64,000 nucleotides of DNA from a virus. Its lineage: Duplodnaviria > Caudoviricetes. The notes under the pieces were generated by a model. The model saw only the letters and a program-made list of their open reading frames with translations, was not told the origin of the DNA and searched no databases. How positions within the stretch are numbered: position 1 is the stretch's first letter; every line of letters starts with the position of its first letter. A program made the translations under genes and the position numbers. Below, in pieces: positions 39,546 to 47,710 of this stretch. Where the stretch lies: the IMG/VR virus record IMGVR_UViG_3300021387_001565, positions 64,001 through 128,000 of that record; one strand, written 5' to 3'.

Positions 39546-39859
39546 GGTTTTTCATCTCCTTCCTCAGTGGGTATTTCTTCCTCTTCCGTTTCCTGTGCGT
39601 CTGTGATATGCCTTACCTTTGTTATCTTGATACCTGCAAGGGAGAATATCTCTGCTGTCCAAAATGTGAACCAACAGGTAATCAGAGTAGAGCTAACTTC
39701 GGTTGATGTGCCATACTGTACATACAAACAAGAAGCAGTAAATAAAATAATTGCTATAATCGCTACGAGTAATACTACTCGGGAAGCGGTCATCCGTTTT
39801 TTCTTTGGAGTTTTAGAGCAGTTAGTCTTTTTCTTCGAACGCTTTTTCTTTGTGCTCAT
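39542..39859 (-). CDS. Two-TM membrane protein (holin-like)
   Basis: Basic N-terminus, two hydrophobic helices, WF..W..E...LAGIK. Confidence 0.6.
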   Translation of the reverse strand: MSTKKKRSKKKTNCSKTPKKKRMTASRVVLLVAIIAIILFTASCLYVQYGTSTEVSSTLITCWFTFWTAEIFSLAGIKITKVRHITDAQETEEEEIPTEEGDEKP

Positions 39860-42800
39860 TAATCATATACTCCTTATATATACCCTGTGCGGCGAAGCCA
39901 TCTCTGACCTGCTCCCACGTTTCGGGCATAAATACGACATTAGGTAAGGACTTGAGCATATCAAGTTCCTCTTTGGGTATAATCTTTAACGACCATTCAT
40001 CGGGCATACGCAGTACAAACTTCTTATTGGGTTCATACTTCGCATAAAACATAGCCCAATAATAGGCGTTAACAAGACACCTAGCCTTGTGCATTTCGCA
40101 GATATAAGTTGCTCTGTGATATACTGTACCGCTGTCTTGATAATTGTAAGCCGCACAATCAGCACAACCACCTGCGATGGGACAGAAGAAGCATTCATCT
40201 GTATTATAAGTTCGGCGGGTTACTCCGCAAATCTCACACAAAGTGCACTTCTCTTCTTCACACTGACATATTCCTGTATCAACGTGTCCGATACGGATAG
40301 GCGGTCTCTCATCACCGAGCGAACTCTCCATATACCTAATACAAGGATAAAGGTATCCGTCGGGGTCGCAAGAAAGCATGTCACCCAACCCCCCACAATT
40401 TCCAGACACCACACTTCCTGCAAAATACGAGTGGTCATCAGCAACAGTGATATTATACACCTCTTGAGGCTCGACATCCCTTGTCGTGAACCGAGACGTA
40501 AATAACATATCTCCGTCAGTAGAGTAATATCTGCTTACGTACTTTTCTGCGGGGATGTTTGCAAACCACCTGTCACCATGTCGGGTAACCTCTCTACCGA
40601 GTAGTATTTCTTTCTTCCCGTCTACTCTTAAGGGTTTATCACAAACAGGGCGATAACCTACTGTTCTTGCGATGAGCATTAACTCGTTAATTAAGGTCAT
40701 TGACTGAGTAGATATATTATAATAGTCTGCCCCAACCTTTTGCTTTAAATACCCATCGGCAGAGATAAAGCCCATCAGTAATGCTTCAAGTGATTCGTTA
40801 TCCCAAGACCAACACTCAGCGGGGATATGCTTGTTATGGGCTAAATGTCCTATATCTTTAGCAAGTCTTACATAAGTATCGTAATTGGGATTACCAACGT
40901 TCTGTGTCTTTATGGGACGGAAGTTGTAAGTGGACGCTCCCTCGGAACATCCGTATACTATCCCTGCGTCGTCGTAACACTTCTTCAAATTATCGAGGTC
41001 GTGTTTGCCACAGCACAGACGAGGCTCGGCGTTTTTGTCATCCCAACATCCGTCGCCTATTGTTCTTCCGAGCAGATAAGCAACACTCGCATCTACTGAT
41101 ACCGTTCTATTAGAGGGTAATACTGCAACCCTTACTCTACTCTTTGTGGGATGCTTCACATTGTGTATTTCCTGCACTTCGTATTTCCCATAAGGTTTGA
41201 AGTGGTCGGTATTCTTCCAACCTCTGTAGTCATAAGGCTCAGCAAATAAATGATGGTCTTTTGTGCATACCATAGGCTGAACGCCGCTTGCCCGTATCTC
41301 TACACAGTTATCGGCAAAATGATGCATAGTGTTTATTACAGGCTTTATATTGCCTTGTTCGGTGTAGACCACATCACCAATTTTGATTTCTTCAATCGGT
41401 TTATACCCTTTATCGGTGAGAATCGGTGTACCCTTACCCCAACACCACGTCTGGGTATCACTGGGTAACTTGGGAGTGAAGAACGAATCCTCAAGGATAG
41501 ATACGAAGATATCTTTTTCAAGATTATTGTCAAGTAAGTATTGGCATGCATCCTTTAATTGATAATACAATTTGGTGGAATGTTCCTGCGTCCAACCCTT
41601 CTCATAAACACAGTTACAGTTGATTTCCTTGTAGCCCATTTCCACCATGTGCTTAATGGCGTGTGATACATGGTCTATATTGCCCGGGGCTATGGTAATC
41701 TTACTGCCCATGTAGTATCCCTTGGACATCCAATCTTTCGCGGCGGCTACTGCTAAATCATACGAACCACTTCCATCGGGGAATACTCGGCAACTGTCGT
41801 GCAGTTCTTTATCACCATCTATAGTGACAGAGAATGAAAGGTTGTTCTTCCACTTCTTTAAGAACTTCTGTACCTTGGGTTCAAAATAGAGAGTTCCGTT
41901 TGAGCAGATACTGAACATAAATCTTTTTGCCCATGGATGATGAAGTTCAATTGCTCTATCGTAGAAGTAAGTGCAAACGTAGTCAATGAGGTCAACGTTA
42001 GTGAACGGCTCACCGCCAATGAACTCAATGATAATTGCAGGGCTGAAACTAGGGTCAACATAGTCTTTGAAGCCCTTGTCACCCGATAACAACAGGTCTA
42101 CGAACTTACGTGCGGTTTCCTGTGACATCATACGGGTTTTTTTGTTGATTTGGTAACAGTACGAACAGTTATGCACAAGAAAGTCGTTAGCTATATACAC
42201 ATGGCTTTCCGTTTCCATGTTATACACCGTAACTTCCTCGGCATCGATAAGTTCATTATCAAGTACGCTAACCCGACTAAAAATGCTCTTTCCGAGTAGA
42301 CCATTAAGACTCTTTCGAGGAATTGCAGGACGAATGGTTGATAACAGGGCTAAAAGCTCTCCGTGCAGAGTAACTATCCACTTGTGGTCATAATTGGGTG
42401 TTGTTCCTGTGTCTGCTTTTGCCCATTCGATATTGAGTAAATCGGCACAGCGGGTCACTTCGTTAATAATGCGGTCGCTAGTGTTGGTAATACGGATAAC
42501 ACCCCCGACGTTGCCCTCAGTGTCGATTAACCCTGCAAGAAATCCTTTGGCATATGCGGTTGAGGTATTCGTTGCCAAATTGGATTCAATAAGGTTACGA
42601 AGCTGTTCCGTTGCCACTGCCCCTTGCGCGAATATTGCAGGGTAGGACACTTCCCCAAAAGCAAACGGCTTAACCGTAATGTCTATGCCGATGGAGCGCA
42701 TGAACTGCTCAAGTTGGTTGGTACACTCGATATCCTTAACCACAAAGCGGTTCTGATAATTGGGTGTAGGAGCGTCTTTCAACTCGCCGTTCTTGTAGTA

Positions 42801-46713: not shown

Positions 46714-47069
46714 TCAAGCCAAAACAATTTCTCGTTAATCAGTGTAGTAACCGTGAGTTCATTCTGATTGACTGTATTCCCTATCTTTATAGTGTAATAA
46801 TACTTGCCCGGGTACAGGAACTCTGTATCCGAGGTAGATAAATGAAATACCAAATCATTGTCTACAATATCTTCAAACTTAACCATCTTTTTGATGATAG
46901 CGTCTTCAAATAGTTGGTTAGGTTCAGCGATGCCCAAATAGAAAGTATCTGCTTCGGTGCATCCCTTAACGACATCCTTTGCGTTGTCAAGCAGACTTGT
47001 AAGGTGTATATCTGCTGTATCTCCGCGAGTAAGACGAATAATTTTGTTGAAAGATATATGCATGGTCAC
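46710..47069 (-). CDS. BppU-like Ig-fold baseplate/fibre adaptor (putative)
   Basis: I.LTRGDT...LSTSDT..L.PGKYYY.IK motif. Confidence 0.55.
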   Translation of the reverse strand: MTMHISFNKIIRLTRGDTADIHLTSLLDNAKDVVKGCTEADTFYLGIAEPNQLFEDAIIKKMVKFEDIVDNDLVFHLSTSDTEFLYPGKYYYTIKIGNTVNQNELTVTTLINEKLFWLE

Positions 47070-47710
47070 ACCACCCTAAACTTGATAGTCTCTTCGGTCA
47101 AATAGTAATCATCGGATACAATAGCAACAGTACAGGTGTATAGCCCACGGATGAATAAGTCTTTTGATACATCATCGGTGATACACACCACTGCGCTGTT
47201 TGCTCCTTCAAATATACGAGTAAAGACAGTCTCACGTCGCCAATCTGTAAACGTGATAACAAGCATCTTATCGGTCATGTTTGGAGTGAGAGTAACTTCT
47301 TTCGGGTCATTCTCATCGTAAACAAGTCCATCATCAACTACCCAAATATAGGATGTCTCTACTCCGTTCTGAGTTCTGCCTGTTCTTATCTCTGTACACG
47401 TCCACGACCTAATATCAGTGACATTATAGCACTTCTGACCAATCTTACCTACTGTTGTTGCCCTCGGCTCTCGTCCGACCTCATCATACAGTAAGGCATC
47501 TTCGGGAACATGTATCACTCTGTTTACAGTAAAGTAAAAATTGTTAGAGTTTCCATAATCCCATTTGTAGTCAATTAACTTACCCGTCTCGTCATGCTCT
47601 TCCGCAAGAGAAGAATACTTCATAACTATCTCTGAATCAGCAAGCCTGTCGTGCATATTATCGGGTATATAATTTGTATCTTGGTTTATATAATTATCAA
47701 ACATTCCCAT
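47066..47710 (-). CDS. Hypothetical structural protein
   Basis: 214 aa, first gene of the fibre/CXXX operon. Confidence 0.5.
   Translation of the reverse strand: MGMFDNYINQDTNYIPDNMHDRLADSEIVMKYSSLAEEHDETGKLIDYKWDYGNSNNFYFTVNRVIHVPEDALLYDEVGREPRATTVGKIGQKCYNVTDIRSWTCTEIRTGRTQNGVETSYIWVVDDGLVYDENDPKEVTLTPNMTDKMLVITFTDWRRETVFTRIFEGANSAVVCITDDVSKDLFIRGLYTCTVAIVSDDYYLTEETIKFRVV

Follow-up and report, generated by a model that had tools for sequence, protein, structure and literature searches.

Radical SAM/SPASM maturases are known for their action on short secreted peptides. Why, then, should a bacteriophage encode one beside a cysteine-rich protein of 587 residues, and what would that protein become? 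These questions are raised by a locus in the window (the whole stretch of DNA analysed here, 64,000 nucleotides), which is part of a phage genome of about 147 kb from a phage of gut or rumen anaerobes. The reading favoured here, to which we give a probability of roughly 0.55, is that the locus represents the CXXX-repeat radical SAM/SPASM system in a phage form that acts on a whole protein, with a tail appendage or fibre shaft as its product.

The cassette genes described in the initial annotation are all present in the list of open reading frames, on the minus strand and where that annotation had placed them (Table 1). They lie in a single late-type transcription unit that runs on the minus strand from 47710 to 39171, with genes for three putative tail-type proteins (214, 119 and 354 aa), the 587-aa Cys-ladder protein, a 118-aa helper and an 1181-aa enzyme precursor, followed by two holin-like genes. 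The first four genes are coupled in the window: the stop of the 214-aa gene overlaps the start of the 119-aa gene by 4 nt, the 119- and 354-aa genes also overlap by 4 nt, and the 354-aa gene stops 7 nt before the ladder gene. At the far end, the 105-aa holin-like gene shares 38 nt with the 3' end of the enzyme gene. The motif ATTGTATWA, of which one copy lies at 47874-47882, occurs 12 times against 2.1 expected, always on the minus strand and mostly 5' of virion genes; a scan for sigma-70 promoters returned 25 sites against 25 expected, which is not above chance. Both the co-oriented run of genes and the late-type motif upstream of it are thus borne out.

Table 1. Features of the cassette, its promoter region and one further fibre gene of the window.
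Feature	Position	Strand	Basis or remark
Late-type promoter motif ATTGTATTA	47874..47882	-	Upstream of first cassette gene
Hairpin	~47815-47855		Downstream of ATTGTATTA motif
214-aa protein	47066..47710	-	No family match (Pfam, NCBIfam, PHROG)
119-aa small phage protein, possibly BppU_N/LtfC-like (lead level)	46710..47069	-	Atlas score and TM
354-aa tail-fibre-like protein	45649..46713	-	Three weak lines
Cys-ladder protein, presumed substrate, 587 aa	43878..45641	-	ORF and homology
N-domain, residues 1-108, three long helices	45318..45641	-	AF2 and homology
Cys ladder, residues 110-573, Ser/Gly/Thr matrix	43923..45314	-	Cys at 3-4 residue spacing
Helper, 118 aa	43435..43791	-	Between substrate and enzyme genes
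Radical SAM/SPASM maturase precursor, 1181 aa	39822..43367	-	TIGR04115
Intein 1, residues 60-400, LAGLIDADG endonuclease	42168..43190	-	Pfam; starts Cys, ends HN
Intein 2, residues 642-990, Hint and Hom_end	40398..41444	-	Pfam; starts Cys, ends GN
Holin-like 105-aa membrane protein	39542..39859	-	Homologue in L001
Holin_LLH-like 124-aa protein	39171..39545	-	Below family cut-off; homologue in L001
Collagen-like-type fibre	2176-5451

The enzyme belongs to the CXXX-repeat class, as had been proposed. The precursor scores 404.3 bits against TIGR04115 (cut-off 350), in two stretches because of its inteins, and intein-less relatives score 493-525 bits against the same model. The next best matches are thioether-forming maturases, including SCIFF and, as the second-best match at 144 bits, the PapB family of ranthipeptide enzymes (NF047865), which has a far higher cut-off of 340; the anaerobic sulfatase maturases of TIGR03942 are distant (E 3.5e-10), and the TIGR04119 CXXX_matur domain has no match in the genome. 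After splicing, the enzyme is predicted to comprise about 491 aa. It is 65% identical to an intein-less phage-type enzyme of 455 aa (locus L031), which is in turn 37% identical to the canonical bacterial TIGR04115 enzyme (locus L029).

Two inteins interrupt the enzyme gene, a feature on which the initial annotation was silent. Their Pfam domains are Hom_end_hint, Intein_splicing, LAGLIDADG_3, Hint_2 and Hom_end, and their junctions read K/C...HN/C and W/C...GN/C. Intein 1 is inserted between CNLK and CSYC, where the +1 residue is the second cysteine of the CX3CX2C motif, and intein 2 between TQTW and CGGLGD, where it is the first SPASM cysteine. Removal of both inteins yields CNLKCSYC and WCGGLGD...C...C, then CFFCPIAGGCADC, with the CX3CX2C and SPASM cysteine motifs intact and the sequence colinear with the L031 enzyme. 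The two insertions have the features of homing inteins, namely Hint and endonuclease domains, Cys1 and a terminal Asn, with a +1 nucleophile in an extein that aligns colinearly with a homologue lacking inteins. In intein 2, Gly replaces His before the final Asn, and the intein of the L001 enzyme at the same site has Lys there. Because each intein directly precedes an Fe-S-ligating cysteine, both must splice first, and the enzyme would be unable to bind its clusters until they have done so. The intein-1 site is also occupied in the enzymes of L007 and L046, and the intein-2 site in that of L001; across the enzyme relatives, three different Fe-S cysteine sites are used, which indicates that these sites are strongly conserved. 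A homing intein likewise interrupts the radical SAM cluster region in other radical SAM proteins, such as the NF038136 Rv2578c family (a weak match, E 2.5e-11). That is a different enzyme family, whereas here there are two inteins in a single gene and a third site in a relative, each directly before an Fe-S ligand cysteine. The double-intein enzyme is new here, and the use of three Fe-S ligand cysteines in one enzyme family as homing sites is of separate interest.

The presumed substrate consists of a folded domain followed by a cysteine ladder. The domain of about 108 residues and the more than 100 cysteines estimated earlier are both upheld, since the N-domain is folded in the AF2 model (pLDDT >90 for residues 1-100) and 122 Cys were counted, together with 130 Ser, 120 Gly and 54 Thr. 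A full HMMER search found residues 1-108 to be homologous to 235 protein clusters, which confirms the reading frame and identifies as an artefact of method a word search among 322-1028-aa proteins that had found no N-domain relatives; a Foldseek search of the PDB returned no match to the fold. The N-domain ends at a conserved junction motif with the consensus SSCRGACTGLC (start cap SSCRGxCTGLC). The first cysteine of the ladder is residue 110 and the last residue 573, with Cys-to-Cys gaps of 4 residues (CxxxC, n = 77) or 3 residues (CxxC, n = 39), and its units are almost all C-S/G/T-x-x up to the C-terminal cap, C-x3-C-[FY]-G-x-A-T-G. This cap and the start cap are the only parts with a conserved sequence. 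No confident AF2 model of the ladder was obtained (pLDDT <50), and it has no sequence relative in the PDB. The ORFs 43769-45319 and 44302-45366, which overlap the ladder ORF, were rejected as genes and regarded as shadows of repeat composition. Tandem-repeat DNA is confined to three short arrays; the ladder therefore did not arise by recent amplification of DNA. Its large size is new here.

The third component is the helper. Public gene calls begin it at Met6, which gives 113 aa, and its AF2 model (pLDDT 92) consists of a strand, a long helical hairpin, a helix, a beta-hairpin and a helix. Fold searches with Foldseek and VIA-align gave generic helical-hairpin matches only, with no recognisable RiPP-recognition fold, so that a role as a PqqD-like recognition element acting in trans is unsupported. 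The helper does not match TIGR04116, nor does anything in the genome even with the E limit set at 10, and hhalign gives a probability of 7-9% in which only a C-terminal W-x-[LI]-D-F motif is aligned. The profile used in that comparison is a poor one, the bacterial TIGR04116 proteins retrieved being all 84-97% identical. A positive control in L029 scores 83.8 bits against TIGR04116. In the phage, a helper of like size occupies the place between substrate and enzyme. The ladder likewise stays below the cut-offs of the target families, with 13.9 bits for TIGR04114 (an 18-position model, cut-off 20), 12 for TIGR04117 and 14.4 for TIGR04118. Thus, of the TIGR families that had been invoked for this locus, the enzyme passes TIGR04115, the target plainly has CXXX repeats but scores below the TIGR04114 cut-off, and the helper does not match TIGR04116.

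How close, then, is the phage cassette to the bacterial system? The CXXX-repeat system of TIGR04115, TIGR04114 and TIGR04116 is defined by bioinformatics only; our example is L029, which belongs to a genome of the same class and has a helper 95% identical to an Anaerococcus protein. The enzymes are homologous, that of the window lying above the TIGR04115 cut-off; a target with tandem Cys-x3 repeats is encoded beside the enzyme; and a small helical helper, sharing the C-terminal W-x-[LI]-D-F motif, is also encoded there. The two systems also differ. The target is a peptide of 57 aa, with 4 Cys, in L029 but a protein of 587 aa, with 122 Cys, in the phage, where it also has conserved caps and a folded N-domain of 108 aa. 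The L029 cluster includes ABC transporters and a longer enzyme of 728 aa, both absent from the phage cassette, which adjoins fibre and lysis genes instead. The phage helper has no TIGR04116 match and the phage target scores below the TIGR04114 cut-off, and phage enzymes carry a conserved N-terminal extension, FEQYQDxIARLYPE, that the L029 enzyme lacks.

The chemistry can be approached through the PapB/PapA (freyrasin) ranthipeptide system, in which the precursor is a short peptide. By analogy, a SPASM radical SAM enzyme would form serial small rings along a Cys-x3 repeat. PapB joins Cys to Asp or Glu in Cys-X3-Asp/Glu, whereas Cys-x2-3-Cys units with Ser, Gly and Thr make up the phage ladder; there are 22 Asp and 7 Glu in the complete protein, many of which belong to the N-domain. 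Because the ladder is so poor in these residues, PapB-type chemistry is not simply transferable, and with the enzyme below the PapB cut-off and the Cys-X3-Asp/Glu acceptors wanting, the cassette falls outside the ranthipeptides. The scarcity of acceptors also favours another reading, that the ladder is a metallothionein-like metal-thiolate or Fe-S scaffold, which may hold with or without a virion location, and that the enzyme makes a different or limited change (at the caps only, or Cys to formylglycine as in anaerobic sulfatase maturases). Dense CxxC/CxxxC in a Gly/Ser matrix without a hydrophobic core is what metal-binding proteins show, the distant similarity to sulfatase maturases points the same way, and so does the restriction of sequence conservation to the two caps. 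We nonetheless consider this reading doubtful. The enzyme resembles peptide cross-linking maturases far more than it does sulfatase maturases, its family is defined by CXXX-repeat targets, and the strict co-occurrence of ladder and enzyme (77 of 80 loci, below) argues that the ladder depends on the enzyme.

Where such a product would go is suggested by its neighbours. Three weak lines point to a fibre-like identity for the 354-aa protein: a match to phrog_10316 (E 6e-4), a match to PDB 7z47, a 'putative tail fiber' (E 1.5e-3), and a C-terminal motif, W-[IVL]-D-T...K-x-Y...W (here W-V-D-T...K-V-Y...W...WG), that recurs in a tail-module ORF at 10509-11012 and in fibre genes 5' of the cassette in other phages. 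A homologue of this protein is encoded directly upstream of the ladder gene in L001, the closest relative, and the gene directly upstream of the cassette carries the motif in 9 of 11 inspected loci and in 43 of the 80 loci of the survey. The BppU-like identity of the 119-aa protein stands at lead level, with no HMM match in Pfam, NCBIfam or PHROG, an Atlas feature score of 0.97 to viral clusters and a TM of 0.71 to a cluster named BppU family; for the 214-aa protein, which had been called structural, position is what speaks for that label, and it has no homologue in L001. By comparison with L001, these two genes are not kept with the cassette. In its gene position, its coupling to a fibre gene and the layout of its relatives, the ladder protein resembles phage tail and side fibres in which a repetitive shaft joins an N-terminal anchor to a distal domain, of which collagen-like fibres are an example. 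To our knowledge, no fibre shaft is a cysteine ladder or needs a radical SAM enzyme. The same coupling, together with the frequent position of fibre chaperone genes just downstream of fibre genes, could suit a protein that scaffolds or assists assembly of the adjacent fibre and is not in finished particles. This we regard as very improbable, since 122 Cys, a radical SAM enzyme of its own and the distal globular domain seen in one relative (P0035) are not requirements to be expected of a chaperone.

The cassette had been described as embedded in virion genes, which is imprecise for this genome, although one fibre-like gene adjoins it. The main virion module, the block from terminase to fibre, runs from 35 kb down to 2 kb of the window, and the cassette lies outside it in a late operon of its own, flanked on one side by genes that are unknown or belong to nucleotide metabolism and on the other by lysis genes. 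The proposed holins are weak but plausible: the 124-aa protein scores 22.3 bits against holin_LLH (cut-off 34.75), its neighbour has transmembrane segments, and the protein at 38420-38986 matches phrog_937, listed as 'hemolysin', which we take to be XhlA. This placement, apart from the main tail module and beside lysis genes, where phages also carry cargo, counts against an appendage. The locus could instead encode a non-virion cargo, a very large RiPP-like product freed at lysis (a toxin, signal or lysogen protectant), and would then sit at the junction of fibre and lysis genes only because phages keep accessory genes there. The vicinity of holins and endolysin is the classic place for moron genes, the bacterial L029 cluster, with its ABC transporters and a precursor of 57 aa, is a true peptide system, and lysis could stand in for a transporter; none was recognised between 36 and 52 kb with Pfam, NCBIfam and PHROG. 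The same search recognised no protease, and hence no leader protease, which speaks against a cargo peptide; an immunity gene is not recognisable nearby either, so that the earlier statement that all three are absent holds. Cargo also fits poorly with the coupling of the ladder gene to a fibre-type gene, and we consider it unlikely in view of the relatives described next.

The initial annotation had proposed a synteny check, and linkage to tail genes, whose absence would have refuted its reading, was indeed found in prophages, in siphoviruses and in a survey of 80 loci. In this survey, for which the N-domain alignment A1 served as query (A2 being too diverse for a locus scan), helper and enzyme genes lie directly downstream of the gene for the N-domain protein in 77 of 80 viral contigs, the other three loci being cut short; the order substrate, helper, enzyme is also found in L001-L007 and L030-L032. 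In prophages and siphoviruses, the cassette lies between tail-fibre genes, which follow baseplate or Dit/Tal genes, and lysis genes. Contigs of Eubacterium and Anaerosporobacter have baseplate wedge, tail protein and tail fibre, then the cassette, then endolysin or holins, and one siphovirus locus has TMP, Dit, Sipho_Gp37 and a 650-aa fibre before it. One carrier of the cassette is a prophage-like contig of 43.5 kb from Eubacterium pyruvativorans i6, a cultured host. The cassette is therefore encoded within or adjoining tail-fibre genes in independent phage lineages, and its retention both in temperate phages and in large phages that are probably lytic is not what cargo would predict. Nor are the proteins themselves: the ladder proteins have 270-715 aa, often in several copies, and many are tripartite, with N-domain, ladder and a globular C-terminal domain of about 150 aa (P0035 and survey forms of 520-570 aa), and one relative, P0032, has a tail or host-range adsorption-type domain inserted. 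The tripartite layout is fibre-like as judged from these sequences. Ladder proteins without the leader occur in L007, L046 and L032, and thus some substrates do without the N-domain. In the case of P0121 (L047), an N-domain relative, the neighbours are Tat and ArdC, and no phage genes are recognisable next to it. Among GenBank phages, megablast with 36-52 kb gave no match and tblastn with the enzyme core gave distant matches only (at most 35% identity, the best one unannotated), and no cultured phage carrying the cassette was found among these records. The literature searched holds no description of a phage cassette of this type, in agreement with the earlier view that its phage-structural role is undescribed.

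A tail appendage could be made as follows. The late operon would yield a fibre-type protein, two small tail-type proteins, the ladder protein, the helper and the enzyme precursor, which would first splice out its two inteins. The spliced enzyme and helper would then work along the ladder between start cap and end cap and modify its cysteines, most likely into serial Cys-to-carbon thioether rings as in the nearest characterised relatives. A chain of Ser, Gly, Thr and Cys without a hydrophobic core may in this way become a stiff, reduction-resistant rod, which the helical N-domain would anchor to the tail, probably via the fibre protein encoded just upstream.

Taken together, the cassette suggests that radical SAM/SPASM chemistry acts on a viral structural protein. 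In its full form, this proposal holds that phages infecting anaerobic Firmicutes apply RiPP-type radical SAM chemistry to an entire protein and turn it into a covalently stapled rod of up to 480 residues that serves as a fibre shaft or appendage, a view that we hold tentatively and at somewhat less than even odds. If it is true, no other substrate of a RiPP-class maturase would approach the ladder protein in size, a new type of post-translational modification of virions and a new protein architecture would be added to those known, and phages would have a new route to a stable fibre that needs neither disulfides nor a hydrophobic core, giving a mechanically and redox-stable structure where disulfides cannot form. 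The uncharacterised TIGR04115 family would thereby gain a biological context.

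The 587-aa ladder protein, the presumed substrate of the cassette, contains 122 Cys, 130 Ser, 120 Gly, and 54 Thr, and its Cys residues follow one another at gaps of four (77 times) or three residues (39 times). Residues 1–108 form a separate domain (the N-domain), for which HMMER, run against 1.84 billion representatives, detected 235 related clusters at E ≤1e-3, of which 47 reach E ≤1e-10. At least 83 of the 150 N-domain relatives listed carry 10 or more Cys, and the few long, low-Cys relatives look like frameshifts, truncations, or fusions. AlphaFold2 (90 sequences) models residues 1–100 as three long helices with pLDDT >90, a fold for which Foldseek returned no PDB match, while the ladder region remains at pLDDT <50. 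The junction between the N-domain and the ladder is nearly invariant (consensus SSCRGACTGLC-x-G-x-C), and a conserved cap, C-x3-C-[FY]-G-x-A-T-G, closes the ladder. Because both motifs are conserved, the ladder has defined limits at either end and cannot be described as loose low-complexity sequence. Recent DNA amplification was ruled out as its origin.

The 1181-aa ORF scores 404.3 bits against TIGR04115 (cut-off 350), the maturase family of the CXXX-repeat system; the next matches are PapB (144 bits), then quinohemoprotein amine dehydrogenase maturation protein, SCIFF, and other peptide maturases. It also contains the Pfam domains Hint, intein-splicing, LAGLIDADG, and Hom_end. The borders of two inteins follow from aligning it with the 455-aa, intein-less enzyme of the related phage-type locus L031 (65% identity): one lies between CNLK and CSYC, with the second Cys of CX3CX2C as its +1 residue, and the other between TQTW and CGGLGD, with the first SPASM Cys at +1. 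Given these positions, the enzyme would bind its clusters only after both inteins have spliced. Among the related enzymes, that of L001 features an intein at the second site only, those of L007 and L046 at the first site only, and that of L005 at a third site, CSW|C in the SPASM CxxC, while those of L002, L006, L030, L031, and L032 have none. At least three Fe-S cysteines thus serve as intein homing sites in this enzyme family. The near-identical phages L005 (9857–12214) and L006 (9857–11191) have maturases that differ by one intein, which suggests a recent gain or loss.

The type of system is catalogued by NCBIfam and uncharacterised, and a literature search found no paper describing such a cassette in phages. 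In the canonical bacterial cluster L029, a 57-aa precursor whose four Cys follow CxxxC spacing is accompanied by a 728-aa TIGR04115 enzyme, an 88-aa helper that matches the associated-protein family TIGR04116 at 83.8 bits, and ABC-type transporter-like genes, read as such from their sequences. The intein-less L031 enzyme is 37% identical to the L029 enzyme over ~400 residues. Unlike L029, the window shows no transporter family between 36 and 52 kb, and no protease family was found there either. All phage maturases share an N-terminal extension, FEQYQDxIARLYPE (residues 10–24 of the window's enzyme), which the L029 enzyme lacks and to which the helper or the N-domain may dock. The 118-aa helper has homologues between the substrate and enzyme genes in related loci. 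In a confident model (pLDDT 92), its chain runs from a strand through a long helical hairpin and a further helix to a beta-hairpin and a closing helix. The helper fails to match TIGR04116; when profiles were compared, true TIGR04116 proteins aligned with it over the C-terminal W-x-[LI]-D-F alone, at 7–9% probability, and fold searches returned generic helical hairpins and nothing else. It is the TIGR04116 counterpart by position only. P0018, an N-domain ladder protein of 334 aa, resembles the helper at its C-terminus; substrate and helper are either naturally fused in it or were joined by a gene call that read through.

The window covers bases 64001–128000 of an IMG/VR virus record of 147,319 bp (completeness estimate 88%), and almost all genes in this stretch are carried on the minus strand. 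PHROG matches delimit a virion block of myovirus type that extends from ~35 kb to 2 kb, in the order large terminase, portal, head protease, major head protein, sheath, baseplate hub, and collagen-like fibre. The PHROG matches of the large terminase are split (residues 107–174 and 539–737) around a helicase-like stretch, a pattern that an inserted element such as an intein might explain. A 416-aa ORF matching phrog_506, annotated as a transposase, lies where the tail-fibre region ends. The cassette is found between the virion block and the thymidylate synthase region, adjoining lysis genes.

Features of the window and the cassette operon (nucleotide positions in the window; intein positions as residues of the enzyme precursor)
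Feature	Position	Strand	Remark
416-aa ORF	731–1981		
Collagen-like fibre	2176–5451		PHROG
167-aa ORF	10509–11012		main tail block
Sheath	20327–21634		PHROG
Large terminase	32505–34934		809 aa; PHROG
124-aa membrane protein	39171–39545	minus	eighth in transcription order
105-aa membrane protein	39542–39859	minus	seventh
1181-aa enzyme precursor	39822–43367	minus	sixth
Intein 1	residues 60–400		
Intein 2	residues 642–990		
118-aa helper	43435–43791	minus	fifth
587-aa ladder protein	43878–45641	minus	fourth
354-aa protein (putatively fibre-like)	45649–46713	minus	third
119-aa protein	46710–47069	minus	second
214-aa protein	47066–47710	minus	first
Thymidylate synthase	55017–55913		
ATTGTATWA copies	642–650, 5515–5523, 10445–10453, 25250–25258, 26016–26024, 35372–35380, 36299–36307, 39159–39167, 41563–41571, 47874–47882, 51797–51805, 51842–51850	minus	

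The genes for the 214-, 119-, 354-, and 587-aa proteins are linked through 4-nt overlaps and one 7-nt gap. The window has 12 copies of the motif ATTGTATWA, where 2.1 would be expected, and every copy is on the minus strand. Because the majority directly precede virion or late genes, the motif probably acts as a late promoter element. The copies include one immediately ahead of the first cassette gene and one within the enzyme gene, ~120 nt upstream of intein 2. The stretch from 47710 to 39171 is probably a single late transcription unit, since the next copy downstream is given at 39159. Within it, the 354-aa protein is tentatively described as fibre-like on several independent but individually weak lines: phrog_10316 (E 6e-4), the 'putative tail fiber' of PDB 7z47 (E 1.5e-3), and a set of Atlas neighbours made up entirely of phage fibre families. 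It also shares a C-terminal motif, WVDT...KFY...W, with the 167-aa ORF of the main tail block, and this motif marks a C-terminal fibre module that the phage carries in two places. For the 119-aa protein, a resemblance to small phage proteins of the BppU_N/LtfC type is no more than a lead, and no match was found for the 214-aa protein.

The initial annotation had proposed a RiPP-like system acting on a phage structural protein, to be refuted if the cassette proved unlinked to tail genes in other phages; the linkage was found, which favours the proposal. In seven IMG/VR contigs (43–254 kb) with enzymes 50–71% identical, ladder proteins lie upstream of the enzyme in all seven; a helper homologue was matched by BLAST in L001–L004 and recognized by position and alignment in L005. 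An N-domain alignment scan found 100 viral contigs, of which 80 were kept. A helper homologue and a TIGR04115-type enzyme directly follow the N-domain match in 77 of these 80 loci, many of which are near-duplicates, so that independent lineages number fewer than 77; the remaining three end <2.3 kb from the match. The gene directly upstream ends in the same WxDT...WG motif as the window's fibre-like protein in 9 of 11 loci inspected and 43 of the 80 surveyed. Siphovirus contig L044 carries TMP, Dit, Sipho_Gp37, and a 650-aa fibre ahead of ladder, helper, and enzyme, with a holin further on; in the 183-kb phage L046, five ladder proteins, a helper, and an intein-bearing enzyme come after a Phage_fiber_rpt protein. 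Close relatives of the enzyme sit in contigs of Eubacterium pyruvativorans i6 (L032/L004, prophage-like, 43.5 kb), of a Eubacterium MAG, and of an Anaerosporobacter MAG, and for this reason the host is probably an anaerobic member of Clostridia. The Eubacterium contigs carry a baseplate wedge (phrog_6), a tail protein (phrog_521), and one or more tail fibres before the ladder, helper, and enzyme, followed by endolysin and holin-like genes; the Anaerosporobacter contig covers only the part from the fibre gene onward. The TIGR04115 cut-off was passed in only 2 of 399 sampled genomes of the class, one being a Eubacterium contig that carries the phage cassette.

The architecture of the ladder proteins varies. 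Common relatives of 520–570 aa (e.g., P0035) comprise the N-domain, a ~240-aa ladder, and a ~150-aa non-Cys C-terminal domain that, judged by sequence, looks globular, and P0032 has an inserted domain matching tail and host-range adsorption proteins. Leaderless ladder proteins occur at L007, L046, and L032, and separate genes encode the N-domain and the main ladder in L030 and L032. L002 (15375–17711) and L003 also encode a second radical SAM enzyme of 405 aa that is more distantly related, and right behind it comes a 364-aa protein whose 81 Cys are set in a distinct Asp/Asn-rich repeat (CSCDNNCCDYDCDCD); the two look like another enzyme-ladder pair in one phage. The N-domain relative P0121 adjoins Tat and ArdC genes at L047, where (8314–10755) an N-domain protein is fused to DUF6273 and preceded by a 223-aa protein with 47 Cys. 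The surroundings hold TatA/TatC, ArdC, and LRR_5; neither a TIGR04115 enzyme nor any gene recognisable as phage lies close by, and this may represent a non-phage use of the N-domain.

Specific to the window locus are a separate late operon shared with holins, an enzyme twice interrupted at cluster cysteines, and a ladder that is among the longest seen (the L112 ladder, from the N-domain locus survey, has 126 Cys). The possibility that the cassette is cargo keeps some weight because it lies at the fibre-lysis junction and, in this genome, apart from the main tail block; its recurrence beside tail genes in other phages fits a virion role. As for the chemistry, thioether formation on the ladder is the best guess by analogy, since the enzyme's nearest relatives form thioethers. 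PapB substrates have Asp/Glu acceptors, which the ladder lacks, and the residues left to supply the acceptor carbon would thus be Ser, Gly, Thr, or Cys. The ladder may also have a metal-thiolate role, one that would be compatible with a place in the virion. Taken together, the most economical reading is that the cassette provides a tail appendage, with a repetitive shaft matured by a dedicated radical SAM enzyme.
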